Source: Nanoarchaeota archaeon SCGC AAA011-D5
GTDB taxonomy: Archaea > Nanobdellota > Nanobdellia > Pacearchaeales > GW2011-AR1
Assembly (NCBI GenBank): GCA_000405225.1
Contig: ASMP01000002.1
Location: forward strand, 1,494-65,493
Direction of reading: 5' to 3'
Length of the DNA: 64,000 nucleotides
In this document: positions 44,194 through 62,101 of the stretch, in pieces
Position numbering within the stretch: the stretch's first letter is position 1
Layout: every line of letters begins with the position of its first letter
The notes under the pieces: generated by a model
Database searches by the model: none
The model's input: the letters and a program-made list of their open reading frames with translations, nothing else
What the model was told of the DNA's origin: nothing
Program-made: the position numbers and the translations under genes

Positions 44194-44308
44194 GTTCATT
44201 GATTTTAAGTAATGACAAAGAGGGGTTTTTACCGACGATAATCTTTTTCTTCACTTAAAATAAGTAATGACAAAAACTATTTTCTCGACGACAACAATTC
44301 TTTTAAAA
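44194..44308 (+). promoter_or_regulatory. envelope-island promoter/operator cassette, copy 1 (distal + proximal units + TATA-like box)
   Basis: AATGACAAA(44211)-N13-CGACGATAAT, then AATGACAAA(44266)-N11-CGACGACAAC-N4-CTTTTAAA(44300). ATG of the LmbE gene is at 44344. An extra partial CTCGACGACAAGG lies at ~44154. Confidence 0.6.
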
Positions 44309-44343
44309 TCTCAATTCTTCAGTGATAATAAATTTAAGGTGAA

Positions 44344-44973
44344 ATGAAACAAAATATATTAGCTGTGGGAGCGCATCCTGATGATATTGAGCTTGGATGC
44401 GGGGGAACTGTTGCAAAGCATCTAGAGCTAGGAGACAGCATTTATGTGATAATTATGACCAATGGGGAAAACGGAAATCACCCTTCAGATAAATCAGAAT
44501 GCTTGAAGTCGCTTAAAAAGATGGGGATAAAAAAAGAGAATATTATTTTTGGAAATTTTCCTGACGGAGATTTAAGCGATGATAACGGAACTGTAAGCTT
44601 TATCGAAAACCAAATAAAAAAATTTAATATAACAAAGGTTTACACACATAATCCAAATGATAGGCACCAGGATCATAGAAACTGCAGCAATGCCGTGTCC
44701 TCTGCAGCAAGAGATATACCTGAAATTTTATTTTTTGAAGGGCCTTCAACAAAGGTTTCTTTTGAGCCACACTATTTTGTTGAAATATCTGAAAAAAATC
44801 TAAAGAAAAAAATAGATTCGTTGAAGGCTTATAAAACTCAGCTTGCAAAAAATAGCATATTGAATTTAGAATGGGTAAAAAATCTTGCAAAAGTTAATGG
44901 AATGAGATGCAATTCTAAATATTCCGAGGCTTTTGAAATAAATCATATTCTCAAAGAAGGGAAAAATGTCTGA
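44344..44973 (+). CDS. PIG-L/LmbE-family N-acetylglucosaminyl deacetylase
   Basis: AVGAHPDDIELGCGGT and HQDHRN metal-site motifs. Confidence 0.85.
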   Translation: MKQNILAVGAHPDDIELGCGGTVAKHLELGDSIYVIIMTNGENGNHPSDKSECLKSLKKMGIKKENIIFGNFPDGDLSDDNGTVSFIENQIKKFNITKVYTHNPNDRHQDHRNCSNAVSSAARDIPEILFFEGPSTKVSFEPHYFVEISEKNLKKKIDSLKAYKTQLAKNSILNLEWVKNLAKVNGMRCNSKYSEAFEINHILKEGKNV

Positions 44974-45721
44974 AGTAGTAATATCTGCCCATCAACCTAA
45001 TTTTATTCCGTATCTTGGATTTTTTGACAAAATGAAAAAATCAGACATATTTGTTATAAGGGACGATGTGCTATTTTCTTCCGGCAGCGATAGTTTTCAG
45101 CATAGGAACAAAATAAGAATTAACGGGAACAACAACCTTGAAAGTCCGCAATGGAAATGGCTGACATTGCCTATAGAAAAAAAAGGCGATTTAATAAAAA
45201 ATATCAGAATTAAAAGAAATACCCTAAAAAAAAAGGATGACTACAGAAATTCTAAATTTTTCAATGAATATTTCCCTGTATTTGAGCGTATTTTTGACAA
45301 TAGCGATGAGACTCTTTTATCATTGAATATGAAGATTATCAATTTTTTAAAAAAGATTTTTGGGATTGACACAAAAATTGTTTTCGCAAGCTCTTTAGAA
45401 TTGAAATATGGTAAAGATGAAGAAAAAAATGCGTCTGAAGATTTAGCCAAAATATGTGAAGCGTTGGGGGGAAATGTATATCTTTCTGGCTCTGGTGCCA
45501 AGAATTACTTGGATATTGAACCTTTTAGAATGAGAGGAATCAAAGTAATTTTTCAAGATTACAAGCATCCGGTTTATAAACAAAATTATCCCAGATTTTT
45601 ACCAAATTTATCCTCCATTGATGGGCTATTTTGTGCCGGAAGAAAGATTTTGGCGGATATAAATAGATACAAAGAAGAAATCACGAATAAATACAAAGAA
45701 GAAATACTTGTAGGAGCTTAA
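44966..45721 (+). CDS. WbqC-family protein (polysaccharide-locus protein of unknown function)
   Basis: ISAHQPNFIPYLGFFDKMKKSDIFVIRDDV N-terminal signature. 8-nt overlap with the upstream gene. Confidence 0.72.
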   Translation: MSEVVISAHQPNFIPYLGFFDKMKKSDIFVIRDDVLFSSGSDSFQHRNKIRINGNNNLESPQWKWLTLPIEKKGDLIKNIRIKRNTLKKKDDYRNSKFFNEYFPVFERIFDNSDETLLSLNMKIINFLKKIFGIDTKIVFASSLELKYGKDEEKNASEDLAKICEALGGNVYLSGSGAKNYLDIEPFRMRGIKVIFQDYKHPVYKQNYPRFLPNLSSIDGLFCAGRKILADINRYKEEITNKYKEEILVGA

Positions 45722-45727
45722 TTTAAA

Positions 45728-48697
45728 ATGATGAAAATAAAAAAAGGGGCTATATTTTTATTTGTTATTATACTTGGGATTTTATTCTCTTCAACTGTGT
45801 ACTCACAAACAACTGGAAATTATTTTACTGATTTTGAATCTGATCAGGGATGGACTGCGGCCGGATTTGGGCAGGGTAAATTTGAGATAGGGATTCCCGA
45901 AAATTTTTCAAGAAGCAAAGAATGTCAAACAACTTGTTTAGGTACTGGAACATCTCAAGACCATACTCCTGGCGGAACAAAAGCAACGTGTACCAATTTA
46001 AATGGGCATCAGGCAAAATTCGAAAATGTTAATACCAATAATTTGACTTCACCTGTTTATGATTTTAGCGAAAAAACAAATATTTCCTTAGAATTGTGGA
46101 GATTTATGGAAATCGAGGGAGACAATTATGATTTTTGTTATTATCAGTATAAAAATAGTCAAAATGGCAGTTGGCTGAACTTGCAGAAATATGGTAAATC
46201 AAGAATAGATGACGACGCCTGGAAAAGATACACAAAAAATTTAACATCTATGGCTGCTGGAAAAAATTATTTCCAGTTAAGGTTTTATTGCACGACAGAT
46301 TATGGAATTGAGGGTTCTGGTTTGTGCATAGATGATGTTAATATTTCTTGGAATTCTATTATACAAACGCCTAAAATCTGCGGAGATGGAATTGTAAATC
46401 TTCCGGGTGAACAATGTGATGACGGAAACAACGTTAATGGTGACGGATGCAGCAGTATTTGTAAGAATGAAACAACAGAAATATATTTTGTACCTTATAT
46501 GGGAGATATTGACGGGAATATTGACCCGACTTGGTTCTTTTTTTACGAGAAACTAAGAAAATGGCATGATGACCAGAACATCCCTGTTGGTTTAAGTTTT
46601 TATCCTAATACTATGAATAACAATCAATTCAATCAAATTATTGCTGATATGTATAACAGCAAGAATATAGAGCTTTTACTTAAAGGGGAGAGCACAGGAA
46701 CGCCTTTGGACCAGATGAATTACTTTGAAGTAAAGGCGACAATTGAATCGCAACAAAACAAATTTATAAATGAGTTAGAAAAATTAGGTTACAGCAATGT
46801 TCAACCCATTATTTCTTACAATCAGCTTTATGGCAAATTTACTGAGACAATCAGAGATGCTGTGCATGATTTGGGATTTAAAATATATCTCGAGCAGTAT
46901 GTAAGTGAGCATGGTTACATTGATGGTTTACCTGATTTTGATATAACCCAGTATAGTGTGGCTCTTACAAAAAGCGGATTGCCAGGACCTACAGAAACTT
47001 TCAAACAACCGGAAGAGGTTCTCCAAGAATTAATTGAATTTAATCACCCACAATTAATTTATATTAATAATGTTAAAGTTGTTCCGTTATTAGTTCATCA
47101 ACAAGATTTTATGATAGATGAATCTGGTTCAGAGTTGAATCAAACAAAATGGGAGATTTATACAAACTTGTTACTTATGACAAAAGATGATTCCAGAATT
47201 AAAATGATTTTACCTGAAGAAGTTTATGATTTAAGACACCCAACACAGCCAATATTAACTAACTACTCTGTTGAAATTTGCGACTGGCAGGATTGTTATG
47301 TTGGGGCGACTTCTGTTTCAATTGACGATAGTTATAATTCTTGCAGAGAAGAATTAAATAAAAACGGGTTTAAAGGAACTTATTACCTATCTGGAACAAA
47401 TAAATTCACTAATTCTGACTGGAACATGTGGAATAGTATTTATCAAGAAGGACATGAACTTGGACCGCATACTCAAACTCACAAGTGCAATGGTTACAGC
47501 GACTCATTATTAAACAGCGAATTGGGCTCAAATTATAATGACATTTTGACCAATATTAGTGGTATATCCAGCAATGAAATTGTTTCCTTTGCATGGCCCT
47601 GTGGCATTACCAGCCCTTCTATGGAAAGCGTGGCAAGCAATTACGCTCTTTCTTCCAGAGGATACTTTATCAATCAGTTAGAGGATAAAAATCCTGCAAA
47701 TTTTATGAATCTAAAAAGTTTTAACACCCCTCATTATAATGAACCTCGAGACCTTCCTCCAAATTACAAAACTGTTGTAGACTCTGCCGAGTCACAAGGA
47801 AAATGGGCTAATTTAGTCTTTCATAACGAATGCCAAGATGACGGTTCTATTGATTATCTTAAAACAAAAAATGTATGGGTTGCTCCAATAGGGACAGTTG
47901 TTAAGTATATAAAAGAAAGGCAAAACACCCAAATTGTTAATCTTACAGTAAATGGTTCTGTAATAAAATTTAATATTGTTAATAATTTGAACCATAATCT
48001 GTTCAATAAAGAATTATCTTTGAGAATTAATATATCAAAAAAAGTTGAGTTTATAAAAATAAATGGGACTAATAAAAATTTTAATAATGAAAATGGCTCT
48101 GTTATCTTTAATCTGGTTCCTAGTGGAAATGATTTAATTGAAATAAAAACTAATGAAAACGACACAGCACCAATAATTATTTGCGGGAACGGCATTGTTG
48201 AACAGGGGGAACAGTGCGATGATGGAAATGCTGTAAATGGGGATGGGTGCAGTTCCCAATGCAAAATAGAAAATAGCTTATGTCAGTATGCTTCATCAGC
48301 TTCAGGCACATCTCAAAATACCCTTGGCTCTTTGGCCCAATATGCTACAGGAGCTCCGAATGCTCCTTTTGTTGGACAATGTTCTACTTGGAGTGGTTAT
48401 GGTTACGCTTGGAGCCCGAGCAACTGGAATATTAAAGCTAATTTAACTTTGAATTATGCAACTCCTGTTTATGCAAAAAATCTCACAATATTTGGAGATT
48501 TTGATATGTGCTGGAATAGAATAACATTGGCAAACTCGCAAACAGGTCAAAAATTTCAAGTCCTTAATGGGATTCAAAACAGCTGCATTTACACGCAAAC
48601 ATTAGGTGGAAGTTTCCTGGCAGATCAAGTTATTTTAGAGACGTGTGGGTGGGGCTGGAGCTCGACAGATGCTGTTCAGCTGTGCGGAGAAACTTAG
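45728..48697 (+). CDS. secreted multidomain protein: MAM-like domain, two Cys-rich CGDG..E.CDDGN..NGDGCS repeats, NodB/CE4 polysaccharide-deacetylase-like domain, C-terminal Cys-rich beta domain
   Basis: Signal peptide. ..GSGLCIDDVNISW. CGDGIVNLPGEQCDDGNNVNGDGCSSICK and CGNGIVEQGEQCDDGNAVNGDGCSSQCK. NodB motifs SIDDS and GHELGPHTQTH. Confidence 0.7.
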   Translation: MMKIKKGAIFLFVIILGILFSSTVYSQTTGNYFTDFESDQGWTAAGFGQGKFEIGIPENFSRSKECQTTCLGTGTSQDHTPGGTKATCTNLNGHQAKFENVNTNNLTSPVYDFSEKTNISLELWRFMEIEGDNYDFCYYQYKNSQNGSWLNLQKYGKSRIDDDAWKRYTKNLTSMAAGKNYFQLRFYCTTDYGIEGSGLCIDDVNISWNSIIQTPKICGDGIVNLPGEQCDDGNNVNGDGCSSICKNETTEIYFVPYMGDIDGNIDPTWFFFYEKLRKWHDDQNIPVGLSFYPNTMNNNQFNQIIADMYNSKNIELLLKGESTGTPLDQMNYFEVKATIESQQNKFINELEKLGYSNVQPIISYNQLYGKFTETIRDAVHDLGFKIYLEQYVSEHGYIDGLPDFDITQYSVALTKSGLPGPTETFKQPEEVLQELIEFNHPQLIYINNVKVVPLLVHQQDFMIDESGSELNQTKWEIYTNLLLMTKDDSRIKMILPEEVYDLRHPTQPILTNYSVEICDWQDCYVGATSVSIDDSYNSCREELNKNGFKGTYYLSGTNKFTNSDWNMWNSIYQEGHELGPHTQTHKCNGYSDSLLNSELGSNYNDILTNISGISSNEIVSFAWPCGITSPSMESVASNYALSSRGYFINQLEDKNPANFMNLKSFNTPHYNEPRDLPPNYKTVVDSAESQGKWANLVFHNECQDDGSIDYLKTKNVWVAPIGTVVKYIKERQNTQIVNLTVNGSVIKFNIVNNLNHNLFNKELSLRINISKKVEFIKINGTNKNFNNENGSVIFNLVPSGNDLIEIKTNENDTAPIIICGNGIVEQGEQCDDGNAVNGDGCSSQCKIENSLCQYASSASGTSQNTLGSLAQYATGAPNAPFVGQCSTWSGYGYAWSPSNWNIKANLTLNYATPVYAKNLTIFGDFDMCWNRITLANSQTGQKFQVLNGIQNSCIYTQTLGGSFLADQVILETCGWGWSSTDAVQLCGET

Positions 48698-48721
48698 AGC
48701 GTATTTAAGATAACCATAAAG

Positions 48722-48742
48722 AATGAAAATCTTTTTGTCATT
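48722..48742. promoter_or_regulatory. imperfect palindrome built from the cassette half-site (AATGAAAAT-N3-TTTGTCATT) upstream of the GT2 gene
   Basis: gAATGAAAATctTTTTGTCATTttataataaaaacatttaaata. TTTGTCATT is the reverse complement of AATGACAAA. Confidence 0.4.
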
Positions 48743-48774
48743 TTATAATAAAAACATTTAAATATCAAAACCTT

Positions 48775-49986
48775 TTGGGAAATTGCATGAAAGGTCCATT
48801 TTCAATTTGGCCATTTTTTGGTTTAACGCTTTGGATTGATGTGTTTACTCACTTATTGAATACAAATAAAGAAAAAAGAATAAATCCATACAATCCTGTT
48901 AGGGAGATTTCTGTTTTGATTCCATTCCACAAAGAACCTGGGGAATCTGTAAAGAGAACTATTAAGTCTATTTATAAAGAAAAATATCCTGTAAAAAACA
49001 TAATTATCTGTGGAGATTCAGAATCAAGCATAAATGAAGACTCTCTGAAAAAAACTTTTAATCATAAAAATCTGTATTACTTAAAAGTTCCTCATTATTC
49101 GAAGGCAAAAAAAATAAATTATGTTGTCGAAAAATTCTCAAAGAATCTTGGAGAGTTCATTTATACTATAGATTGTGGCGCCAAAATAGAGGAAGGATGC
49201 ATAGAAAAAATGATTTCCTATTTTAGCAATGGTAAGGTTGCTGCCGTCACATCATATGGTAGAGTTAGCGTGCCAAAGAATTTTTTATCCCGCTCTTACT
49301 TCTATGGAAAAGCTTGGATAAATGAGATAGGAAGATTTCGTAAAGGTGCCCAGGAAAAGAGGGGGGCATTATTTGTTATTTGTGGTGCATCTACAATATA
49401 CCGAAAAGAAGTATTAAAAAAAATTCCAATCCCGTATAAAAGTAAAACAGAAGATACTTACTACACTTGGCTGTTGCAACGTAATGGTTTTACAATAAGA
49501 GTTGCTGATGATGCTACTGTCTCTGCTCCTGAAGTTGATGGAAGTGGATTAAAAGGAATCGAAGGTCAGATAAAACAATCATATCGTTGGAGTTCAGGAA
49601 CATTGCAATGTCTTAGTTTAGAAGGCAAAATGATATTCAAAAATAAAAAACTGGCTTATAGTACGCTTTTGCCTGGTTTTATTGAGGCAATTATGTATTC
49701 TGTTCCTTTATTTTTTCTTCCCTTACTTTTTTTTGTTTTTCCTGCATTTGCTCTTGGTTTTTTGATTGGTGATACTGTTTTTTCATTAATTGGAACACTT
49801 ATCTTCATACCAGAGAAGTTCGGAAAAACTTTGCTTCATTATCCCCAGGTTATGTTCTTCAAATATCTAAATGCCGCAATATTTTTCTTTGCAATGATGG
49901 TTGTTGGTTTTCAGGCCATTTTTGGAATGAAAGATAAATGGAATAATGAATGGGTTTCGCCTGATATAATGAGAATCGAAATGTAA
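48775..49986 (+). CDS. processive family-2 beta-glycosyltransferase (NodC/PgaC/chitin-cellulose-synthase-like), multi-TM
   Basis: GT2 motifs VLIPFHKE, IDCGAKI, TEDTYYT, QIKQSYRWSSG (QxxRW). One N-terminal and ~4 C-terminal TM segments. The likely true start is ATG 48787 (track start is TTG). Confidence 0.8.
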   Translation: MGNCMKGPFSIWPFFGLTLWIDVFTHLLNTNKEKRINPYNPVREISVLIPFHKEPGESVKRTIKSIYKEKYPVKNIIICGDSESSINEDSLKKTFNHKNLYYLKVPHYSKAKKINYVVEKFSKNLGEFIYTIDCGAKIEEGCIEKMISYFSNGKVAAVTSYGRVSVPKNFLSRSYFYGKAWINEIGRFRKGAQEKRGALFVICGASTIYRKEVLKKIPIPYKSKTEDTYYTWLLQRNGFTIRVADDATVSAPEVDGSGLKGIEGQIKQSYRWSSGTLQCLSLEGKMIFKNKKLAYSTLLPGFIEAIMYSVPLFFLPLLFFVFPAFALGFLIGDTVFSLIGTLIFIPEKFGKTLLHYPQVMFFKYLNAAIFFFAMMVVGFQAIFGMKDKWNNEWVSPDIMRIEM

Positions 49987-51066
49987 TTATAAATAACTTA
50001 CAGAACTTATTAAGGATTTTTTTATGTAATCAACTTCCTCATTTGTAAGCGAAGGATAAATTGGAATCGAAAGATTTGTATTTTGGGCATGTTCTGTATT
50101 TTTAAAAGTCTTGGGATTTAATCCCAAACATCTGTGCAAGGGCTTGAATACTGGTTGAGATACTATTATTCCTTTTTTTTGTAATTTTTCTTTAAGCGCC
50201 TTAAGCTGGGTGGAATTTTTTGTTCTTATAACATACCTGAATTTTATTTCCCCGTTTATTTTTTTAGGCAGGCCTAAACCGATTCTTGAAAAAGCTTTGT
50301 CATATTCCTTTGCAATTTCCTGCCTCCTTTTTAAGAAATACTCAAGTCTTAATAATTGGCTTAATCCCAATGCTGATTGAATGTCTGTCAGGTCATAATT
50401 ATATGCAATGTTATATTTTTCTTTGTTGTCGTATTGCGTTAAATTATCCAAATTTTTTTTTAATGGCTTTGAATTTGTCAGAACCATGCCCCCGTGTCCT
50501 GTTGAGATGACTTTTGTTGCATAAAATGAGAAGATGCTGAGATTTCCAAAACTTCCAAGCATTTTTCCTTTGTAACTTGCTCCAAGAGACTGCGCGCAAT
50601 CTTCTATGATTGGGATTTTTTTTGAGATTTTTTTTATTTCATGTATGTTTGCAGGAACTCCAAAAAGATGTATGACAATTATTGCCTTCGTTTTTTTTGT
50701 TATAAGAGGTTTTATTGTTTTAGCTGAAATGTTAAAGCCATTGTTTTCAAAATCAGAATCAATATTTGCTAATACTGGCTTTGCGCCGGTGTAATTCACC
50801 GCGCTTAAAACTGATTCACAAACATAACTTGGAAGTATGACTTCATCTCCTTTGCCAACCCCTAAAGAGAGTAAAGCCAAATGCAAGGCAGCTGTGCCCG
50901 AGTTTGTTGCTTTCGCATATTTAACTCCAATAAATTTGCACATTTTATTTTCAAATTTTTTTGTCTTTGGACCTGTGGCATGCATGCCTGATGCTACTTG
51001 TTCTTTAACTGCTAAAATGTCTTCTGCAGAAACAGTTGGTTTTGAATGTGAAATAATTTTAGGCAT
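49987..51066 (-). CDS. DegT/DnrJ/EryC1/StrS-family PLP-dependent sugar aminotransferase
   Basis: NSGTAALHLAL, EDCAQSLGASYKGK, FSFYATKVISTGHGG (PLP Lys). Confidence 0.88.
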   Translation of the reverse strand: MPKIISHSKPTVSAEDILAVKEQVASGMHATGPKTKKFENKMCKFIGVKYAKATNSGTAALHLALLSLGVGKGDEVILPSYVCESVLSAVNYTGAKPVLANIDSDFENNGFNISAKTIKPLITKKTKAIIVIHLFGVPANIHEIKKISKKIPIIEDCAQSLGASYKGKMLGSFGNLSIFSFYATKVISTGHGGMVLTNSKPLKKNLDNLTQYDNKEKYNIAYNYDLTDIQSALGLSQLLRLEYFLKRRQEIAKEYDKAFSRIGLGLPKKINGEIKFRYVIRTKNSTQLKALKEKLQKKGIIVSQPVFKPLHRCLGLNPKTFKNTEHAQNTNLSIPIYPSLTNEEVDYIKKSLISSVSYL

Positions 51067-52715: not shown

Positions 52716-52830
52716 GTTCATTGATTTTAAGTAATGACAAAAAGCCATTTTTATCGACGGTAATTATTCCTTTTCACCAAACGAAAGGAATGACAAAAAC
52801 TATTTTCTCTACGACAATAATACTTTTAAA
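52716..52830 (+). promoter_or_regulatory. envelope-island promoter/operator cassette, copy 2
   Basis: The 26-mer gttcattgattttaagtaatgacaaa is identical to copy 1. AATGACAAA(52733)-N13-CGACGGTAAT, then AATGACAAA(52789)-N11-CTACGACAAT-N4-CTTTTAAA(52823). Confidence 0.6.
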
Positions 52831-53034
52831 GAAAATACTTTTAATCATTTCATGATTATTCATAAGAGAGTAGTGACTGATAAAAGAGCAGCAAACATCT
52901 CTCTGTCAAATTCAAAAGAAACCTCACCAATTCATAGTTATGCATTAAATGTGTATAACACCCGGCAGAGTGAAATTCTCACTCAGCTCAACTTTGTTGG
53001 GTGCCTTGAAGTACTGAAAGGAGGTTATATATAA

Positions 53035-54132
53035 ATGAAAAGCTTATTTACACTATCGGTAATGGCTTTATTAGTGTTAGCTGTCATGCCCGCAGTTCTT
53101 GCTGTAAGTGTCGGAAGCGGTATAACTCCAGACATTACAACAGAAGACTTCGCTCCATTGGTTTGGATGTGTGATTCTAGAGTTGTCTACGATGATGCAA
53201 CTGAACCTGGAAGAATCTCTGGTGATGGTGAGGTACTTAAAGAAAGAATAAACAACTATGCTTTCGAAGGAGAGCAGATAACGTGGAGAGTTCTTGTAAT
53301 GGACAAAAACGGAGTTGAGAAAATTGAAGATGTTTTTGCCACAATAGGAGACTCCCAAGGTGAAGGAAACGACATAGAAGTAAACTGTCAGGAAGTATGG
53401 GTTGGAAATGACATAGACGAGACATGTAATGCAAGAATCCTTGAAGAAGACTTAGATGACTTCGATGGAGATGTAATGAAGTACTATGACTGTACTCTTA
53501 CAGTTGAAACACCTGAGAGCATGAGTGGCGAGAAATGGGTAACTGTTGAAGCTGTTGACCTAGATGGCTTGTCCGGAACAATGGATGAGAATGAATTTTG
53601 GTTCCTTAACCCTGATATAGCGTTAAGTATTGACGGAATACTAACGTTTGATGATGTGAGGCCTGGAACACAGAGTTACTCAAATACATTGTTAGTTGGA
53701 AACGACGCTGAACTTGGTTCAGGAGTTCTACTTGATATGTTTATATCAGGTACTGACTTTTATGATACATCAAGCAGCGGAGCAATGTGTCCAACAACAA
53801 ACCAGTTAACTTTGGACAATTTCAGATACTATGTCACAAACGGCGCTTACAACTCTGCACTAGATGCAGGGGCTGACTCTGTTGATTCCGACAGAGCTAC
53901 TGACGTAGAGGGATATACAAATATAGAATATGGTATAGGATTCAATAATCCAGCCCCATTCTATGACAATGCAGAAATATTACAAGCAGGACCTTCTATT
54001 GGCCCATACTACACTGCTAACATCTTGGCACCAGGTTCTGAAATGGCATTAACCTTCAAGTTAAGTTTGCCAGAGCCATGTAACGGTGACTTCGACTCGG
54101 GAAGCATATTCTTCTGGGGAGAAGCTATCTAA
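53035..54132 (+). CDS. secreted beta-rich protein (365 aa), distant paralog of the 58766/59224 subunit domain
   Basis: Sec signal ..VLAVMPAVLAV. LTFDDVRPGT motif shared with VDFGTRVPGT and LNFGSLSPGT. The 28-nt ribosome-binding/start region is identical to that of 58766. Confidence 0.6.
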   Translation: MKSLFTLSVMALLVLAVMPAVLAVSVGSGITPDITTEDFAPLVWMCDSRVVYDDATEPGRISGDGEVLKERINNYAFEGEQITWRVLVMDKNGVEKIEDVFATIGDSQGEGNDIEVNCQEVWVGNDIDETCNARILEEDLDDFDGDVMKYYDCTLTVETPESMSGEKWVTVEAVDLDGLSGTMDENEFWFLNPDIALSIDGILTFDDVRPGTQSYSNTLLVGNDAELGSGVLLDMFISGTDFYDTSSSGAMCPTTNQLTLDNFRYYVTNGAYNSALDAGADSVDSDRATDVEGYTNIEYGIGFNNPAPFYDNAEILQAGPSIGPYYTANILAPGSEMALTFKLSLPEPCNGDFDSGSIFFWGEAI

Positions 54133-54138
54133 CTGAAC

Positions 54139-54170
54139 TATTTTTTATTTTTTATTTTTTATTTTTTATA
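54139..54170 (+). terminator. tandem oligo-T terminator, (ATTTTTT)x4
   Basis: ctattttttattttttattttttattttttat directly after the stop of 53035..54132. Confidence 0.6.
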
Positions 54171-54272: not shown

Positions 54273-55532
54273 ATGTTAATAAAAAAAAACATGGCAACAC
54301 TTGGAATCTTAATTGTAGCATTTGCCGTAGTCTTGGCATCAGCAGTTTATGCTACGCATATTCCTGTGCAGTGCAATGATGGCGCTGATAATGACTTAGA
54401 CGAAAAAATAGACTTTCCTACAGATAATGGGTGCTCAAGTGCATTAGATAACACTGAAAGTATAACATTAGGATATGCACATGGGTGTCTTACTAATGGA
54501 GATGAATTAAAAGATGTTTTTGGAAATACAAATTACCAATGTAATGCTAATTCTTGCATAGCATGTGTTTTGATGACTGAAGCAGGGAATTGGACAACAC
54601 TTCTAAGTAAATGTAATAATTTGCCTCCTTGTGGATTCAATGATGGCAATGGGGGAGTCGGCGGAAACACGACAATAGATTCACAACCACCTAACCTAAC
54701 AATAAACAATCCAATAGAAGGGAGGATTTACAACTCCAGGACGGTTTTGCTTGATCTGAAAGTAGATGAAAAATCAGATATTTATTACACCGATTTAGTC
54801 AACGGGCGCGGAAGATGGACAAGGGTCTGCTCTGATTGTCTTGGATATAAAAGGACAAGGTCTTTCGGAGAGGGGCTTAACAGCATACAATTCAAAGCGT
54901 CAGATGTTATCGGAAATACTGCCTATAAAAACATCTCGTTTTTTATAGATAGCATGAAACCAAGAATACTAAGAGAAGAGCCAAAAGACGGATTCACAAG
55001 CGGGGATTTCTCAATACAATTTAGTGAAGATAATCCTGAAAGATTATTCATGACGTATGGGGACGTTAATCCAGGATTTAATGTTCATGAAATAGACATA
55101 GATAATGAGTGCCAGTTAGAGAGAGGGAGATATTACTGCGACACCCATATTAACCTATCTGGGTATGATGGGCATGAAATATTGTACTGGGTGACTCTCA
55201 CAGACATTGCAGGCACACAGACTGATTCCAAAAAACATAACGGATTGGATGTTGATACAACTTCCCCTGTTATAAATAGTTTAACCAATACAATTAACAA
55301 AAGGTATGTTAATTTTGTAGTCAACGTCACGGAAGAAAACTTTGACGAAGCAAATTATTCTTACATAGACACCAATGGAAGAACAAGAGAAGGGAGACTG
55401 TGCTCCAGATTAAAAGACGGAATTTGCGAGAAAAAATTAAGTTTCAGACCAGGGCATTTTGATGTTTCAATTCAGGTTTTAGACAAGGCTGGAAACAGCG
55501 TTGGGCAAGTAACCAGCTTTGATGTTGTCTAA
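54273..55532 (+). CDS. secreted protein with a C.DG.DND-type Cys/Asp-rich N-terminal motif and Cys-pair Ig-like modules
   Basis: Signal peptide. CNDGADNDLDEKIDFPTDNGC. Modules containing RWTRVCSDC, FFIDSMKPRI, DVDTTSPVI, LDKAGNS. Confidence 0.6.
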   Translation: MLIKKNMATLGILIVAFAVVLASAVYATHIPVQCNDGADNDLDEKIDFPTDNGCSSALDNTESITLGYAHGCLTNGDELKDVFGNTNYQCNANSCIACVLMTEAGNWTTLLSKCNNLPPCGFNDGNGGVGGNTTIDSQPPNLTINNPIEGRIYNSRTVLLDLKVDEKSDIYYTDLVNGRGRWTRVCSDCLGYKRTRSFGEGLNSIQFKASDVIGNTAYKNISFFIDSMKPRILREEPKDGFTSGDFSIQFSEDNPERLFMTYGDVNPGFNVHEIDIDNECQLERGRYYCDTHINLSGYDGHEILYWVTLTDIAGTQTDSKKHNGLDVDTTSPVINSLTNTINKRYVNFVVNVTEENFDEANYSYIDTNGRTREGRLCSRLKDGICEKKLSFRPGHFDVSIQVLDKAGNSVGQVTSFDVV

Positions 55533-55595
55533 ATTTACCAAATCAGAGTAACAATATAAAATATTTAAATGAGAAGGCACTTAAAATAATGGAAT

Positions 55596-58592
55596 ATGAA
55601 AAAAGAAATCTTGATAATAGCATTAACGATTACACTAACTGTTTTTTTGGCTAGTTTTCTTTCTGCGGCAACGTTTTTTGTTGACAATACCGTTTCTTGT
55701 GATGATAATACTTTAAATTCATCGGCAACGCCTTATTGTGAGATTCAAGAAGCTGTTGATGACGCTTCAAATGGGGATACTATTAATGTTGTTGCTGGGA
55801 CGTATGACGAACAGGTTGTGATTGACAGCAAGAGCTTAACACTTCAAGGTGCTGGAGATACAACAATCATAAAACCATCTTCGGCTAGTTTATTGACAAC
55901 TTTTTATACATACCCAATCGGAGTTTTGCCGGCGTGGGTTGGACTTAAACTTGCTGGTTCGATTTTAGTTAAAAATAACTCTAATGTAACAGTAAAAAAT
56001 TTGAAAGTTGACGGAATAGATGTTTCAAGTTTGCCTGTTGGAGCAGATAGACTCGCCGGAATAATATATGGGGAAGCTGGAGGACTAATCTCAAATGTAA
56101 CTGTTAACAATATCAAGACTCCTGGTTACTCAATAAGAGGATATGCAATTGATACTAGTTCAGTTACAGCTCCCTTAAACATAGAAATTAAAGACAGCAG
56201 AGTTAATGATTTTGCCCGCACAGCAATTCAAGCACAGAGTGCAAATCTTACAGCCAATATTCATGATAATGTAATTGTCGGACCTGGTTCAATTGGCCCT
56301 GCGAATGTGCCAAACGGTATAGTTTTAATTGCCGGAGCAAAAGGAAATGCAACTAATAACAAAATTAGTGCTAATCATTATACTGGCGTCACTTTTTTAG
56401 GTTCGGGGGTATTGTTATTCCAGGCAGGAGATGGAATCTTAATATCAAACAACGAGATTTTTGATGTTGATGATGCAATAATTCTTGCTGGAACAGATTT
56501 GTCCAATGTTCAAAATAATAATCTTCATAATAATGTTAAAGGAGTTAGAATTGAAGACGTTAGCGGGGATGGTTCTGCAAGTAACAGCCTAACAGATAAT
56601 ATAATTAAAGATAACACATTATTTGGAATAGACATCGGAAGTTCTTCTGGGGGAAGCAATTCTGCAAATAAAAACAGCATTACTGGAAATTCTGTAGGAG
56701 TAAATAACGGGGGTGCATTCAGTTTCAATGCAACATATAACTGGTGGGGGGATTGCTCTGGGCCAGATGTTGATGGACTGGGAAACCCTGGAACAGGAGA
56801 CAGAATTGTAAATGCATCTGGACCTGTTCTTTTTAATCCATGGGTTGGAGTTTGCATAACAGATAAAATTAATGTTCAATGTGCAGAGCAATCAAAAGAT
56901 GTAATGCTTAGTGCAAATGTTAGCTCTTTCATAGGAACTCCGGCTTTAGACGATGTTTGGTTTTCATATACAATAAATGGAACAAATTACAACAAAACCG
57001 GACTAAATACTTTCGGCGACGTTTATAATGCCACAATAAATTCCTCAGAATTGGTTGGTGGGCAAAGTGTAAGTTGGAATGTTTATGCAAATGATACTTC
57101 AGGCGTTGTTGTTGGAAATGGGCTTCAGACATTTTATGTGCGCAATGCGACGAGGCTTGGAATTGTGCCCTTTCCTGCAGACGGGTTAAATGGCTGGTGG
57201 GTTACAGAGCCGGTATTTTCATTAACGCCAGATGCAGCAAGTGCTGGAAATGATTCATGGTATCAATGGGATGCCGATGATATCTTCAAATATACGGGAC
57301 CTTTTGACTTGGATGATATTCCAAATGCCCCCCCTATAGAATCTGCAGGAACTCTTGGATTAAACTGGTGGACAACTTTTGGAATTTGCGGAAATGAAAC
57401 TGTTCAAAGTCAGACTTTATTTATTGATTTAAAAAATCCGCTGATCACAGATCTTCAGCCAGCTGATGGCTCAACAGTTTTCAATAATTTAAGTCCGACG
57501 ATAAGTGCACTTCTAGATGAGGTTTACCAAAGTAATTCAGGAATTAATCAAAGCAGTGTTTCAATGAGGCTTGATGGTGTGTCTGTTAGCGCAAATGTAA
57601 CTCCTTCTGGAGATTTGGATGCTATTGTGAATTTTACTCCTAGCTTTAATTTATCTCTTGGAAACCATCAAGTTTATGTAAATGTAACAGACAACGCAGG
57701 AAGATTTTCACAGAAAACATGGAACTTCACAATAAATACAACTGGTGTGTTTAATATGACTGTTCATTCACCGAAAAACATAACATATAGCACAAGAAAA
57801 ATTCCATTTAACATAAGCTTAACTGGAGAGGTTGAAAAACTAGAATACATTAATTACAATGAAAGAATTCCTCGTTGGAGAATATTATGCAGAGACTGCA
57901 ATCAATCTGGATTTGACAAACAAAAAAACAAAACACTGCTTGAAGGAGAAAATTTAATAGGAATAAAGGCAACCGATTTCCTTGGACAGATGAATCAGCA
58001 AAATATAAGCTTGTTCATTGATACCAAATCTCCTAAAATACTTAAAACAGAACCTGCCAAAAACAAGGTAACAAACGGAAGCTTTTCAATAAAATACACT
58101 GAAGATAATGTAAAGGAAGTCTTGTTAAGCTGGAATCCAACTGTAAATTTAACGAGCCAGTGCAATACGCCTGGAAAAAACGTTGTCTGCGACGTGCAAA
58201 TTAACAATAATCTCTCTAACTTTTCAGCTTATGACGGACAGAATATAATGTATTGGATTAACATGACAGATGTTGCTAACCATACGGCCAGCACAAAACC
58301 AACGAAGGTTTTTGTAGACACGACAGCACCAGTAATAAATTTCTTTAATCATTCTATATCAGGAAAAACCGTTGAATTTGTTATTCTTATTACTGAAGCT
58401 AATTTTGATGAGATAAATTACTTTGATTTAAGCCAAAGTAATCCAAAAAAAGTGCAATTATGTTCAAAAATTAGTGGTGGGCTTTGCAACAAGAAAAAAA
58501 CCTTTAAAACCGGCGCACATAACTTAACAATTAATGTTCTTGACGACGCTGGAAATGCTGCAATGCAAAATTTGAACTTCATAATCTCATAG
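55596..58592 (+). CDS. large secreted adhesin-like protein: right-handed beta-helix region + Ig-like modules (998 aa)
   Basis: PYCEIQEAVDDASNGDTINVVAGTYDE followed by repeated N..I/V.GN-type beta-helix turns. >30 N-x-S/T sequons. C-terminal modules paralogous to 54273 and 61062. Confidence 0.7.
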   Translation: MKKEILIIALTITLTVFLASFLSAATFFVDNTVSCDDNTLNSSATPYCEIQEAVDDASNGDTINVVAGTYDEQVVIDSKSLTLQGAGDTTIIKPSSASLLTTFYTYPIGVLPAWVGLKLAGSILVKNNSNVTVKNLKVDGIDVSSLPVGADRLAGIIYGEAGGLISNVTVNNIKTPGYSIRGYAIDTSSVTAPLNIEIKDSRVNDFARTAIQAQSANLTANIHDNVIVGPGSIGPANVPNGIVLIAGAKGNATNNKISANHYTGVTFLGSGVLLFQAGDGILISNNEIFDVDDAIILAGTDLSNVQNNNLHNNVKGVRIEDVSGDGSASNSLTDNIIKDNTLFGIDIGSSSGGSNSANKNSITGNSVGVNNGGAFSFNATYNWWGDCSGPDVDGLGNPGTGDRIVNASGPVLFNPWVGVCITDKINVQCAEQSKDVMLSANVSSFIGTPALDDVWFSYTINGTNYNKTGLNTFGDVYNATINSSELVGGQSVSWNVYANDTSGVVVGNGLQTFYVRNATRLGIVPFPADGLNGWWVTEPVFSLTPDAASAGNDSWYQWDADDIFKYTGPFDLDDIPNAPPIESAGTLGLNWWTTFGICGNETVQSQTLFIDLKNPLITDLQPADGSTVFNNLSPTISALLDEVYQSNSGINQSSVSMRLDGVSVSANVTPSGDLDAIVNFTPSFNLSLGNHQVYVNVTDNAGRFSQKTWNFTINTTGVFNMTVHSPKNITYSTRKIPFNISLTGEVEKLEYINYNERIPRWRILCRDCNQSGFDKQKNKTLLEGENLIGIKATDFLGQMNQQNISLFIDTKSPKILKTEPAKNKVTNGSFSIKYTEDNVKEVLLSWNPTVNLTSQCNTPGKNVVCDVQINNNLSNFSAYDGQNIMYWINMTDVANHTASTKPTKVFVDTTAPVINFFNHSISGKTVEFVILITEANFDEINYFDLSQSNPKKVQLCSKISGGLCNKKKTFKTGAHNLTINVLDDAGNAAMQNLNFIIS

Positions 58593-58707
58593 TTCATTAG
58601 ACAGGAGTAATGATAAAAAGCCATTTTTGTTGACGGTAATTGTTCCTTTTCATTGAACAAAAGGAATGACAAAAACTATTTTGTCGATGACAATAATGCT
58701 TTTAAAG
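58592..58707 (+). promoter_or_regulatory. envelope-island promoter/operator cassette, copy 3
   Basis: AATGATAAA(58609)-N13-TGACGGTAAT, then AATGACAAA(58665)-N11-CGATGACAAT-N4-CTTTTAAA(58699). ATG is at 58766. Confidence 0.6.
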
Positions 58708-58765
58708 AAACGGGTTTTGAAGAGTCTAGGTGATAATAAGAGAGCTGAAAGGAGGTTATATATAA

Positions 58766-59218
58766 ATGAAAAAACTTTTACTTTTTTGGGTGATGTTTGG
58801 TGTTCTTATTAGTATGTCAAGTTCTGTTCTTGCTGTTAATCAGGGGCTGAATGTAACAATTGGTGAAGACATTCATCTTTTGATTAATCCTGATACAGTT
58901 GATTTCGGAACAAGAGTACCTGGAACTGGTTATTCTGCATTAAACGGACCCATAACATTTGATGCTACCGGAAGTAATGTTGATGTAACTGTAACAGTTT
59001 CAGCTGTAACAGGATTCCCTTTTGATAGCGCTACATTGCTTTTAGATGGAGATAGTACTCCAGTAGGAAAATCTTGGCTTTTAGTATGTGAAACTCCCCT
59101 TACAGTATGCACATATGATGTTGCAAGCACTGTGCCAACATTAGATATTCCAACAGGAGCTTCACAAGGAAACCATGTAGGAACAATAACATACACAGTA
59201 ACAGGCCCATCGCCATAA
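58766..59218 (+). CDS. small secreted beta-rich protein (150 aa), candidate filament/major subunit
   Basis: Sec signal ..MSSSVLAV. The mature ~125 aa is ~50% identical by eye to the C-terminal domain of the next gene. Conserved Cys pair. Ends TITYTVTGPSP. Confidence 0.6.
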   Translation: MKKLLLFWVMFGVLISMSSSVLAVNQGLNVTIGEDIHLLINPDTVDFGTRVPGTGYSALNGPITFDATGSNVDVTVTVSAVTGFPFDSATLLLDGDSTPVGKSWLLVCETPLTVCTYDVASTVPTLDIPTGASQGNHVGTITYTVTGPSP

Positions 59219-59223
59219 TTAAA

Positions 59224-60321
59224 ATGGAATATAAAAAGTTCCTTATCTTTTTTGCGGTATTTGTAATATCGGTTGGACTTGTGTCTGCTGCCGTTACCGT
59301 AACATCGAAAAGCAGATCGTCCACTGGAGCAGCGTTCACAGAAATTTCTACGGAAAATGATGTTTCCATTCCAAATTCCTTAAGATTATTTGCAAGTGAA
59401 ATAACAAGTTTTCCTCCAACAAATGAGGCAAGATTTAGGGTAAATTTTGCTTCAGGAACAAAATTATCCGACTTGGAAAGTGTTTCTTGGATGCAGTTTG
59501 TTGATCATGGATACATTTCCCATGTTGATGTTTTGCTTGATATCAACGGAAATGGAGTTTATGATGGAACTGCTGGAGGCGACGATGCATTAGTTTTCGA
59601 ATATGCCAAGGTTAAGCCTAGTTTAGGGTGTGACGATGTAGATGATTACCCTCTTGGAAGTGTTGATACATTTGGAGACAAAGGAATCGTAGATAATGAT
59701 GCTTGGGCTTGGTTAACTTCAGGACCTGCAGGAGGATGTGCATCACCAGCAACAGAATTTTTCTGGCATGTTTTAAGTGCTTGGAAAGCAGGCGTACCTC
59801 CTTCAGAGGCTAATGGAAAAACCATTAATGGAAACACAAAAGTCGTTGCATTAGAAATAGAAGTAGACGGATGGATAGCAGAATCAGAGGCATTTATAGA
59901 CGATGTTAAAATAAATAATGCGTTGGTTGAAAATTTTGACGGCGCGCAGGTAGTGGAAGTTGAAATTGTCGCCCTTACACTTGTAAGCATCGCTCCTACG
60001 AGCTTGAACTTTGGCTCACTCTCACCAGGAACAACAGACAATGCCGCATTAAATGGGCCCATCTTGTTTGATGCTACTGGCAGCAATACAAATGTTAACA
60101 TAGAAGTTGCATCTGTTACTGGTTTTCCTTTTGCAGATGGTCTAGAATTTGATGGATTTAATCCAGTAGGACAAGATTGGGACTTTATTTGTGTAGTAGT
60201 TAATAATGTTTGCACATATCCGGTTCAATCAACAGAGCCCACCTTAAGCATACCAGCAGGAGCAGTTATTGGAGAGCATATAGGAACTGTAACATATACT
60301 GTGACAGGATCTCCACCATGA
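59224..60321 (+). CDS. secreted two-domain protein: N-terminal jelly-roll/lectin-like domain + C-terminal subunit-like domain
   Basis: Signal peptide. N-domain ends ..EIEVDGWIAESEAFIDDVKINN. C-domain LNFGSLSPGT..NGPILFDATGSN..VTGFPF..VCTYPV..GTVTYTVTGSPP parallels the 58766 product. Confidence 0.6.
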   Translation: MEYKKFLIFFAVFVISVGLVSAAVTVTSKSRSSTGAAFTEISTENDVSIPNSLRLFASEITSFPPTNEARFRVNFASGTKLSDLESVSWMQFVDHGYISHVDVLLDINGNGVYDGTAGGDDALVFEYAKVKPSLGCDDVDDYPLGSVDTFGDKGIVDNDAWAWLTSGPAGGCASPATEFFWHVLSAWKAGVPPSEANGKTINGNTKVVALEIEVDGWIAESEAFIDDVKINNALVENFDGAQVVEVEIVALTLVSIAPTSLNFGSLSPGTTDNAALNGPILFDATGSNTNVNIEVASVTGFPFADGLEFDGFNPVGQDWDFICVVVNNVCTYPVQSTEPTLSIPAGAVIGEHIGTVTYTVTGSPP

Positions 60322-60325
60322 GAAA

Positions 60326-61060
60326 ATGAAAATTAAGTTTTTTTTATTATTTATAACTTTAACTTTATTCGTGTTGAACGCGATTCAGGCTGTCGGCTTT
60401 TCGCCGAGCAGCTTGACCTTTGATCTAGGAAAAAATCAGGAAGAATGTAAAATGATAACAATAGAATCAGATTCAGAAAAAATAACAGTTTCAGATAGCT
60501 GGGCAGAGAATGAAAGTGTTGAATGGAAAGTCAGTTCATTTAACACAAGTTCAAGTGAGCATGAAATTACAATAACCTATGACAATGAACTTTCTATTGA
60601 TGAAAGAGAGGTTGAAGTTTGCCTTTCTGGAAGCAAACTTGGAGAATATCATGGAGTTTGGTTATTTCAAGAAGAACAGCAAGGAAATTCTGTTGTTCAA
60701 TTTGGAGTTTGGCTCAAAGTTTTAATAAATGAGCAACCAGTAGCTGCCAGTAGCTCAGGTGGAGGTGGAGGCTCTGGAGGTGGAGGCGGAATCATTGCTC
60801 CGAAAAATACTACGAATACGACAAATAATTCTATAAAATTTGAAAATACAGCTAATGCACAATCTGAAACAGAAGCGGGAACTGAGTCAGCAGGAACAGA
60901 AGGAGAAACAGAAGATTCTTTTTCCAGAATAACAGGCAGAGCTATTTGGGGAAATATAAATGCCAGAAACTTAATTGCGCCTGCCGCGGTAATCGTCCTT
61001 GCGATTGTTGCATTAATAATTTATAAAAGAAAAAATAACTTGCGGCAAAGGGGATATTAA
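60326..61060 (+). CDS. signal peptide + single beta-sandwich + Gly-rich/acidic linker + C-terminal TM anchor protein
   Basis: ..AVGFSPSSLTFDLGKNQEECKMITIES.., GEYHGVWLF, SSSGGGGGSGGGGG, LIAPAAVIVLAIVALIIYKRKNN. Confidence 0.55.
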   Translation: MKIKFFLLFITLTLFVLNAIQAVGFSPSSLTFDLGKNQEECKMITIESDSEKITVSDSWAENESVEWKVSSFNTSSSEHEITITYDNELSIDEREVEVCLSGSKLGEYHGVWLFQEEQQGNSVVQFGVWLKVLINEQPVAASSSGGGGGSGGGGGIIAPKNTTNTTNNSIKFENTANAQSETEAGTESAGTEGETEDSFSRITGRAIWGNINARNLIAPAAVIVLAIVALIIYKRKNNLRQRGY

Positions 61061-61061
61061 C

Positions 61062-61985
61062 ATGAAAAAAAGAGGTTTTTTATTTTTAGGGATTTTATTA
61101 GTTGGAACAGTGTTTGCTTTTACCATGGAGCAGGGTTTAAAGGTGACTATTTTAACAGGAGATATAAATATTATTTCCCCTATGCAGGATAATATTTATG
61201 ATGACAGAAGAATTCCTGTCATAATTTTGCTTAGCGAAGAAGCCGAGTATTTAAAAGTTAGCGATAACGGCGGAAGATTTAGAAATCTTTGCAGAAACTG
61301 CGATAGTTTAGGCTTTTGGTCAACTAGGATAATGGGCTTTGATGAAGGATTCCATGAACTGGAATTCGTGGCCGTATTTAGTGATAGAACTGTGTCACAA
61401 AACGTGTCTTTCTTTATAGATAGTAAAGATCCAACAATAACTAAAACAACGCCAGCAAGAAATCAGGTAACAAACGGATCTGACTTTTCTGTTAAATACA
61501 CAGAGAGTAATGTAAAAGAAATCTTATTGATCTGGAATCCAACTATTAATCTTACTGGACAATGTGCTTCTGGAGAAGACGTAATCTGCAATGTGCCCCA
61601 AGTTGACTTAACAGCTTTTGATGGGCAGGAAATTGAATACTGGTTTAATGTAACAGACATTGCCGACAACACAGATAGTTCTATTCCAACAAAAGTCCTG
61701 GTTGATACAACTTCCCCCTTGCTGACTGTGAATGCTCCTGTAAATACCGCTTATGGAAGAAGAGTTCCTTTTAATCTAAGTGTTAGCGAAGATGTTACCT
61801 TGGATTTAATAGACAACTCTGATTTAAGTCCAACATGGAAAAGAATATGCTCAAATTGTAATTCTTATGGATTAACCAGCTTAAGAACAAAGTCATTCAA
61901 AACAGGAATGCACGACATTGTAATCAGGGCAACAGACAAGGCAGGCAACAGCGACAGCGAAGCTGTAAGTCTTGATGTTGCCTAA
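61062..61985 (+). CDS. secreted protein made of three Cys-pair Ig-like modules (paralog of the 54273 and 55596 C-termini)
   Basis: RFRNLCRNC, FFIDSKDPTI, VTNGSDFSVKYTESNVKEILLIWNPTINLTGQC, VDTTSPLL, WKRICSNC, TDKAGNS. Confidence 0.6.
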   Translation: MKKRGFLFLGILLVGTVFAFTMEQGLKVTILTGDINIISPMQDNIYDDRRIPVIILLSEEAEYLKVSDNGGRFRNLCRNCDSLGFWSTRIMGFDEGFHELEFVAVFSDRTVSQNVSFFIDSKDPTITKTTPARNQVTNGSDFSVKYTESNVKEILLIWNPTINLTGQCASGEDVICNVPQVDLTAFDGQEIEYWFNVTDIADNTDSSIPTKVLVDTTSPLLTVNAPVNTAYGRRVPFNLSVSEDVTLDLIDNSDLSPTWKRICSNCNSYGLTSLRTKSFKTGMHDIVIRATDKAGNSDSEAVSLDVA

Positions 61986-62056
61986 ATGCCAGATTAATTT
62001 CAAATTTTTAATTTCGGCCTTTTTTTCCTTTGTTTTCTTTATTTTCACCAAAAAGA

Positions 62057-62101
62057 AGTAATGACAAAAACTATTTTCTCGACGACAGCAATACTTAAAA
62101 A
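62057..62101 (+). promoter_or_regulatory. envelope-island promoter/operator cassette, copy 4 (proximal unit only)
   Basis: AATGACAAA(62060)-N11-CGACGACAGC-N4-CTTAAAAA(62094). ATG is at 62125. Confidence 0.55.

Follow-up and report, generated by a model that had tools for sequence, protein, structure and literature searches.

The DNA analysed here is a 64,000-nt stretch assigned to Nanoarchaeota archaeon SCGC AAA011-D5 (contig ASMP01000002.1, positions 1,494 to 65,493 of the forward strand; hereafter, the window). Its gene content is archaeal, including genes for the B and A subunits of RNA polymerase (RNAP), the elongation factors EF-2 and EF-1alpha, aminoacyl-tRNA synthetases and an intron-containing tRNA. 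Between positions 44194 and 62101 lie four copies of a promoter cassette, each upstream of genes for secreted proteins or glycan-modification enzymes, whose homologues are labelled Pacearchaeota, Woesearchaeota or Nanoarchaeia. An earlier sequence-only reading of the window, made by a model, had described this cassette as the shared operator of one transcription factor. We scanned the window together with a 6.5-kb extension past its end (L001), 70.5 kb in total, with position-weight and nhmmer searches, and compared the cassette with related loci from other genomes.

The four copies comprise seven units, all intergenic and all on the + strand, arranged as three distal plus proximal pairs and one further proximal unit. 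Direct reading and both scans agreed on this count, strand and placement, as previously claimed, and on the pairs at 44211/44266, 52733/52789 and 58609/58665, in which the distal and proximal members are spaced 55, 56 and 56 bp apart. The pattern AATGAYAAA-N9-15-YGAYGRYAAY was matched literally by five of the seven (0.00 expected in shuffles), and the units at 52789 (CTACGACAAT) and 62060 (CGACGACAGC) are each one base off. A repeat finder returned a family of four copies of ~105 nt, and in the alignment the homology spans ~115 bp, the inter-unit spacer TTTTCAC..AAG included. Each ~56-bp unit opens with a TTCAY box, followed by 9–10 nt, AGTAATGACAAAAA, CTATTTT and.TCGACGACAAYAAT, to which the proximal units add CTTTTAAA. 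Across genomes the consensus is ~60 bp long and reads TTCAY-N8-AGTAAY.AC(A)AAAAACTATTTT.TCGACGACAAYAAT.CTTTTAAA. Internally, the units have direct ACAA-type repeats 21–22 bp apart and an A-tract and a T-tract that are in phase; the GACAA direct repeats pointed out earlier are present, 21 bp apart. A 26-mer reported as common to copies 1 and 2 is real and has an actual length of 28.

Copy 1 has a distal unit at 44194–44242 (GTTCATTGATTTTAAGTAATGACAAAGAGGGGTTTTTACCGACGATAAT; detected by reading, pattern and nhmmer) and a proximal unit at 44249–44309 (51.8 bits in nhmmer), with CTTCAC as box 1, AGTAATGACAAAAACTATTTT as box 2, CTCGACGACAACAAT as box 3 and the TATA-like CTTTTAAA at 44300–44307. In copy 2, the distal unit (52716–52764; 23.5 bits) is followed by a proximal unit at 52772–52831 (51.0 bits; CTTTTAAA at 52823–52830). 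The distal unit of copy 3 (58592–58640; reading, pattern and nhmmer) overlaps the upstream stop codon by one base, and its proximal unit occupies 58648–58707 (54.7 bits; CTTTTAAA at 58699–58706). Copy 4 has its proximal unit at 62043–62101 (52.6 bits), ending in CTTAAAAA at 62094–62101. This unit, located earlier at 62060, was confirmed; its description as standing alone needs qualifying, as the alignment places a decayed distal unit at ~62003–62042 (+), in which the T-run and the TTTTCAC spacer alone are recognisable. A TATA-like box (CTTTTAAA or CTTAAAAA; the assignment is by sequence only) is thus present after each proximal unit, at 44300, 52823, 58699 and 62094, as had been read. Upstream of copy 1, a weak nhmmer match at 44151–44165 (+) marks a box-3 remnant (TTTTCTCGACGACAA) that is identical to 44280–44294 at 15/15 positions and is probably the relic of a third, more distal unit. 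Two Logan contigs from independent short-read assemblies (SRR3927433_61 and _62) break within the copy-4 proximal unit (window 62058–62085), indicating that the repeat fragments metagenome-assembled genomes (MAGs) at these surface-gene promoters.

The cassette is specific to this part of the sequence. The scans of the 70.5 kb returned the seven units, the box-3 remnant, a look-alike at 21805 of the transcription factor B recognition element (BRE) plus TATA, and nothing else. All seven units fall within 18 kb, with none in the remaining 52 kb, which hold the RNAP, EF-2, EF-1alpha and aminoacyl-tRNA synthetase genes; accordingly, the block was not found at the housekeeping promoters of the same ~70 kb, those of EF-1alpha, EF-2 and RNAP included. 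Nor is the motif frequent without positional bias, a pattern that the sequence-only reading had named as one that would refute it: throughout the 70.5 kb it is in sense orientation and directly upstream of a gene. A 718-kb control of unrelated contigs, preselected for the loose motif, scored ≤17 bits, versus 37–65 bits for true copies. When a loose degenerate pattern with two variable gaps was run on metagenomes, 119 of the 120 loci returned were chance matches, and only L092, an orthologous fragment from a Hainich H43 groundwater assembly, was real. Three scans of viral contigs with the cassette cores found nothing relevant, the eight 18-mer matches all being below the nhmmer threshold. One claim was not upheld. 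The "palindromic half-site" reported before the GT2 gene (48722–48742) consists of a single reverse AATGACAAA; this 9-mer occurs nine times in the window (2.0 expected), three of them outside the cassettes, so that the site is not distinguishable from chance.

Comparison with the generic promoters of the window separates the cassette into two parts. Generic promoters have an A-rich stretch and then TTTAAA, TTTTAA or TTATAA ~28–33 nt before the start codon, a distance that suggests mostly leaderless mRNAs; at −3 to −7 they are rich in A, and they have no G+C-rich TCGACG box. The TATA-to-ATG distance is similar in copies 1, 2 (for the ATG at 52852) and 4, at 20–35 nt. The combination of ACAAYAAT and TATA alone recurs at ordinary promoters, i.e., at 21805–21834 (before the gene of a 94-aa cytoplasmic-looking protein) and at the genes at 15509 and 35075, which makes the 3' end of the unit the BRE of this genome. 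The last ~17 bp (ACAAYAAT, one base and CTTTTAAA) are thus the ordinary A-rich BRE plus TATA-like box, and the cassette-specific part is the ~40 bp upstream.

The start codons at 44344, 58766 and 62125 lie downstream of copies 1, 3 and 4 as proposed. The first transcription unit (44344–48697, +) encodes, according to Pfam, a PIG-L deacetylase, a WbqC-like protein and a 989-aa secreted polysaccharide-deacetylase/DUF4215 protein. Just upstream of copy 1, a 48-nt direct repeat (40610–40657 and 43835–43882, 83% identical), which is a copy of the 3' end of a DEAD-box helicase gene, flanks a 3.2-kb segment with a second helicase, a 132-aa ORF and a nucleotidyltransferase; the segment could be an insertion or a duplicated gene end. 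Copy 3 precedes the third transcription unit (58766–61985, +). Its four closely packed genes encode proteins of 150, 365, 244 and 307 aa, all annotated with signal peptides, and the 307-aa protein has a Big_13 domain. The fourth (62125–64000, +) starts at a leaderless distance from the copy-4 TATA and encodes, by domain annotation, a 213-aa membrane-anchored secreted protein (62125–62766). Its second gene, of which the window covers the start, encodes a 1299-aa surface protein (MopE, LTD, Big_9 and He_PIG domains) and extends to 66662 in L001-extended coordinates. The first genes after the four cassettes (PIG-L and those of the 365-aa, 150-aa and 213-aa proteins) are not paralogous, as BLASTP gave no mutual matches. 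Given this content (signal-peptide proteins, Big_13, beta-helix and LTD domains, and PIG-L, WbqC and deacetylase enzymes), "cell-envelope" is a fair label for the set. In the related locus L141 (10001–13740), PIG-L and WbqC directly follow the genes of 369-aa and 379-aa surface proteins in one gene string, an arrangement that appears to link glycan tailoring with surface protein independently.

Among the linked genes, the most consistent association with the cassette is that of the 365-aa gene after copy 2 (53035–54132, +). Its product is secreted, with an all-beta, tandem Ig-like fold predicted by AlphaFold2 (pLDDT 78.5); the model has weak Foldseek matches (TM 0.2–0.3) to tandem Ig-like domains of bacterial surface adhesins, and no sequence match was found in Pfam, NCBIfam or the PDB (phmmer). 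More than 1200 homologues were detected, the best 120 at 64–86% identity, in Pacearchaeota- and Woesearchaeota-labelled genomes, a conservation that is unusual for a surface protein. It may be the major envelope protein of the lineage. A T-rich, terminator-like run lies 3' of the gene, at 54137–54168.

The pairing of copy 2 with the start codon at 53035 was found not to be direct, as this codon is 203 nt past the TATA, which requires either a small ORF in between or a long leader (~180 nt). At leaderless distance, 20 nt after the TATA-like box, there is an ATG at 52852, and gene callers placed a 60-aa ORF there (52852–53034); it was called in two assemblies (L131 and L132), and its frame is not conserved in L143. 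The segment 52832–53034 (+; fold z-score −2.68), which would serve the 365-aa gene as a leader or may contain the 60-aa ORF in leaderless form, carries a hairpin GTTATGCAT..GTGTATAAC and a conserved Shine-Dalgarno context, TGAAAGGAGGTTA. Across genomes the leader is 150–420 nt long (window 52832–53034; L132 9556–9975; L133 9852–10000; and the equivalents in L140 and L143) and is closed by this almost invariant context. A hairpin of the GTTATAC..GTATAAC type was found in four genomes, and a semi-conserved AAAGAGTAGTRAC lies ~30–45 nt past the predicted transcription start site (TSS); RNAalifold on seven genomes gave no consensus structure for the leader. The leader element may be either a peptide or an RNA element.

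To follow the cassette across genomes, we used loci encoding orthologues of the 365-aa protein (70–79% amino acid identity in global alignments) and of PIG-L. For three of the four operons, orthologues preceded by the block were found among six other genomes. It was found upstream of the 365-aa orthologue in L132, L133, L138/139, L140 and L143/144, of a 212-aa orthologue in L133 (17843–17902, cf. copy 4) and of the PIG-L–WbqC genes in an independent genome (L147/L148), so that co-occurrence with the same gene families, which the sequence-only reading had proposed to look for, was observed in L133, L143 and L147. At the position orthologous to copy 3, a degenerate cassette precedes a 158-aa gene in L143 (14532–14725). 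It is broken at 14585–14670 by two perfect hairpins, CCACACACTTTAGTGTGTGG and CCGCACCTTTTAAGGTGCGG, which may be an inserted small element or small RNA (sRNA). Distal plus proximal pairs occur in L132 and L143, and single units in L133, L138, L140 and L147. All significant nhmmer matches in 384 kb of related DNA are in sense orientation and directly upstream of a gene. The 18 strong ones represent about a dozen distinct promoters after duplicate assemblies were merged, and all end in a TATA-like box 20–60 nt before the start codon or leader. The only exact match to the cassette in a genome collection was the MAG "Nanoarchaeota archaeon H32-bin010" (L002).

This conservation exceeds neutral expectation. 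In 11 non-redundant copies, information content is 1.5–1.7 bits per column from box 2 to TATA, ~0.9 around box 1 and ~0.5 in both flanks. Relative to window copy 2, the segment from box 2 through TATA is 79–83% identical in five genomes, versus 50–71% at fourfold sites of the adjacent gene. The comparison of copy 1 with L092 gave 61/61 identical positions in the proximal unit, 44/49 in the distal unit, 28/34 in the TATA-to-ATG spacer and 70% at third positions of the adjacent PIG-L gene, and that of copy 4 with L002 gave 58/59 in the proximal unit and 86% in the coding sequence of the 213-aa protein. The earlier statement that conservation extends well beyond BRE/TATA therefore stands, with orthologous promoters in six genomes far above synonymous-site identity, and we conclude that the block is under purifying selection beyond the core promoter.

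Within the window, copies 1 and 2 are 83% identical over 117 nt, 2 and 3 89% over 105 nt, 1 and 4 88.5% over 61 nt, and 2 and 4 85% over 61 nt. Putative mobile promoters have been defined by ≥80% identity over ≥50 nt upstream of non-paralogous genes in one genome (Matus-Garcia et al. 2012; commentary PMC3575422), and five of the six cassette pairs reach this operational threshold, non-paralogous downstream genes included. The identity of copies 2 and 3, together with the ribosome-binding site context that both have, suggests duplication or gene conversion, and the distal unit is a tandem ~56-bp duplicate whose TATA has decayed and which is under weaker constraint. The copies might accordingly stem from the recent spread of a mobile promoter or from gene conversion and do nothing besides providing the core promoter, their likeness (77–89% over 61–117 nt) reflecting recent copying. 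We consider this highly improbable: the cassettes are conserved at orthologous promoters of genomes with saturated synonymous sites, and in close relatives they are near-perfectly conserved (61/61 and 58/59) while the flanks diverge. Propagation thus could account for the origin and build-up of the set and not for the persistence or maintenance of its sequence; selective maintenance is seen, recent mobility is not. Tandem and dispersed duplication of a promoter module, followed by retention under selection, is one route of regulon growth that the cassette shows.

That the repeated sequence instead functions as a transcribed RNA (leader, sRNA or riboswitch), as a micro-ORF or as a miniature inverted-repeat transposable element (MITE) is hardly credible. 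In favour of this group of readings, the sequence is repeated, and the window units contain ATGACAAAAACT..., readable as MTKTIFSTT, but the block is always in sense orientation and directly upstream of a TATA and a gene. A structured RNA or riboswitch was rejected, as fold z-scores (−0.36, −2.1 and +0.06) were not significant, Rfam gave no match at E ≤ 1, and the block is upstream of the TATA. The ATG of the micro-ORF is lineage-specific and missing in orthologues, which carry a frame-shifting 1-nt indel. No consistent terminal inverted repeats flank the copies, and their orientation and position are strictly promoter-like, which speaks against a MITE.

A different question is whether a sequence that is selected and promoter-bound needs a regulator. 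The direct repeats and in-phase tracts, together with the lack of a clear dyad, leave room for a constitutive strong-promoter module, in which an intrinsic enhancer (a curved A-tract/T-tract, an UP-like element or a second weak site for the TATA-binding protein (TBP) and transcription factor B (TFB)) would be kept for very high expression of surface genes. Box 2 plus the T-run (GACAAAAACTATTTT) and box 3 plus TATA (GACAACAATTCTTTTAAA) are alike at 12 of 18 positions, with A5–6 and T4–6 tracts in phase, and the 365-aa gene looks highly expressed and monocistronic from its strong conserved Shine-Dalgarno context and oligo-T terminator. However, the presumably highly expressed EF-1alpha and EF-2 genes and RNAP operon do without the block, extreme expression is not expected for PIG-L/WbqC enzymes, and conservation of the TCGACG, TTCAY and AGTAAY boxes holds at the level of single bases, more than curvature alone would need. 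No UP-like mechanism is known for archaeal RNAP. Overall, this explanation seems unlikely to us.

The position of box 3 bears on a further alternative. It adjoins BRE/TATA, no part of the block varies less, and some archaea have multiple TFB/TBP pairs with promoter preferences; the cassette could accordingly define a promoter class for a specialised TFB or TBP paralogue, with the invariant TCGACGACAAYAAT as an extended, paralogue-specific BRE. However, conservation reaches ~−85, past any TFB/TBP footprint, and no gene for TFB or TBP was noticed in the sequences covered. Genomes of the DPANN archaea usually have few basal-factor paralogues. Taken together, these points make a paralogue-specific promoter class very unlikely.

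The explanation that we favour, with a probability of about 0.6, is that the cassette is an extended archaeal promoter, in which an upstream activator-binding element defines a cell-surface and glycan regulon. The BRE/TATA would set the start of transcription ~22–25 nt downstream and so produce leaderless or short-leader mRNAs. The ~40-bp element upstream of it, with its three boxes (TTCAY; AGTAAY.AC(A)AAAAACTATTTT;.TCGACG), would be bound by a sequence-specific transcription factor, as TBP/TFB contacts do not account for a tripartite element of this length (~−40 to −85) and sequence specificity. Given the place of the element upstream of the BRE, the factor would most likely be an activator that assists TBP/TFB recruitment, the main variant being a factor that represses or does both. 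The distal unit would probably be an auxiliary, cooperative binding site. Under this factor would stand a small regulon of the major conserved secreted Ig-like protein and two further secreted-protein operons, which the PIG-L/WbqC glycan-modification operon would join in some lineages. What we infer from the sequences is binding by a protein, activation, which factor acts and where the TSS lies; of the features expected of a site of the upstream-activating-sequence type, three were found, i.e., a fixed orientation adjoining BRE/TATA, presence at the promoters of several related genes, and purifying selection beyond the core. Of the original proposal, the shared cis element that links glycan-modification and secreted-protein operons is borne out, and the operator for one transcription factor is better phrased as a putative activator site than as a repressor operator.

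Archaeal factors bound upstream of BRE/TATA activate and those bound over TATA or the TSS repress, as for TrmBL1/Tgr, Halobacterium salinarum TrmB, Ptr2 and TFB-RF1 (PMC4158304), and EarA is an upstream-bound activator at the archaellum operon (PMC10665913). A repressor operator would have a factor at box 3 and the distal unit that occludes the BRE or loops the DNA, silencing the surface operons as long as a signal is absent. In favour of this, box 3 is contiguous with the BRE, and two sites ~56 bp apart could allow looping. In copy 2, moreover, an inverted box-2-like sequence on the − strand (52827–52849, AATGATTAAAAGTATTTTCTTTA, 83% complementary to 52789–52811) lies past the TATA and over the predicted TSS. 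Yet the conserved block is mostly upstream of the BRE, whereas archaeal repressors typically overlap TATA or the TSS (PMC4158304); in the alignment the inverted element is not conserved in orthologues, and the second site is missing in the single-unit genomes L133, L138, L140 and L147. Repression by this route therefore appears decidedly unlikely.

Several observations weigh against an activator-binding element. The block lacks the clear dyad symmetry that is typical for most archaeal winged helix-turn-helix dimers. Common descent or gene conversion accounts for part of the within-genome identity (copy 2 vs 3, 89%). L141 and L145 have degenerate versions with box 1 and part of box 2 only, and the promoter is an ordinary one in the Woesearchaeota-labelled L134 and at the PIG-L operon of the L133 genome (L149), indicating that the element is dispensable in some lineages. 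The scans covered ~70 kb of this genome and ~20–40 kb per relative, so that copies at unrelated genes are possible.

On synteny alone, a candidate for the regulator is a TrmB-family transcription factor gene (35075–35881, +; Pfam PF01978 and PF11495). It was found 7–9 kb upstream of the first cassette in five genomes, including L133, L138, L140 and L147, and beside the isoleucyl-tRNA synthetase (IleRS) gene where the locus reaches that far. Known TrmB-family operators are TACT-N3-AGTA, TGM TATCAC-N5-GTGATA and TACT-N7-8-GAGTA (PMC4158304). None of these was found in the cassette, which has an AGTA/GAGTA half-site in box 2, no TACT partner at N3 or N7–8 and no TGM. As the gene is in a general synteny block with IleRS and the arginyl-tRNA synthetase gene, and no known TrmB motif is present, it is a candidate only; the mismatch is compatible with a TrmB paralogue of other specificity. 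An AGTAA palindrome in the promoters of the TrmB genes, considered as a conserved element, was dropped because the window has it and L133, L138 and L140 do not. The window also encodes a double AsnC-type HTH protein (25022–26008).

Elsewhere in the window, RNAP subunit A is encoded by a single ORF of 1162 aa (4304–7792) with Rpb1 domains 1–5, the usual archaeal state being a split into A' and A''. An 81-aa ORF lies between rpoB and rpoA (4032–4277). The intron-containing tRNA gene at 29925–30062 has a long intron (138 nt overall) and was detected by Rfam and not by ARAGORN.

The cassette is comparable to several known archaeal systems. Like Ptr2 of Methanocaldococcus, TFB-RF1 of Pyrococcus and the upstream TGM sites of TrmBL1/Tgr, it has a conserved element directly upstream of BRE/TATA at several promoters, with a primary site near the promoter and an optional auxiliary distal site (PMC4158304). 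In contrast to these, its sequence is unrelated, without a palindrome like TGM or TACT-N3-AGTA, its block is longer (~40 bp, three boxes), the factor is a putative one, and it comes from a DPANN archaeon that has not been cultivated. Short boxes repeated upstream of the BRE of a cell-surface-structure operon are also known from the EarA TACATA repeats at euryarchaeal fla/arl promoters (PMC10665913). The genes are different there, no TACATA repeats were found in the aligned cassette sequences, and no homologue of EarA was noticed, although no search was aimed at one. The Halobacterium Bat/bop regulon and the GvpE sites of gas-vesicle promoters are small regulons with a common upstream sequence, for which the activator is known and encoded within the regulon. 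As in these, a handful of promoters of functionally linked genes have a common sequence adjoining BRE/TATA; the cassette differs from them in sequence and phylum. It differs from putative mobile promoters, with which it has the degree of identity before non-paralogous genes in common, in being conserved also at orthologous positions across genomes. A search of a paper library found nothing on cis-regulatory elements of Pacearchaeota or Woesearchaeota. The kind of element, an upstream activating site plus BRE/TATA that serves a small regulon, is already known; what appears to be new is this instance, with the depth of its conservation and its host lineage.

Uncultivated DPANN archaea such as Pacearchaeota have tiny genomes with few regulators and are thought to depend on cell-surface contact with a host. 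In these organisms, a near-invariant ~60-bp element is found at the promoter of the secreted protein that is most conserved and at those of surface and glycan operons associated with it. Its sequence profile could be used to define the regulon in any MAG, the element could be a bait for the regulator, by DNA affinity purification sequencing (DAP-seq), electrophoretic mobility shift assay (EMSA) or phylogenetic profiling, and it may provide future genetic tools with a strong or regulated promoter. A bolder proposal, which we regard as speculative and rather doubtful, is that everything that Pacearchaeota expose at their surface would be switched together by a master regulator specific to the lineage, or by a basal-factor variant dedicated to this task. 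The switch would act on the major Ig-like protein, the accessory adhesin-like proteins and their glycan tailoring, with host-cell contact as a conceivable trigger and members gained or lost by copying of the ~56-bp unit in front of new operons. If true, no transcriptional regulon would have been defined earlier in DPANN archaea, and this one would provide a handle on how episymbiont attachment is controlled.

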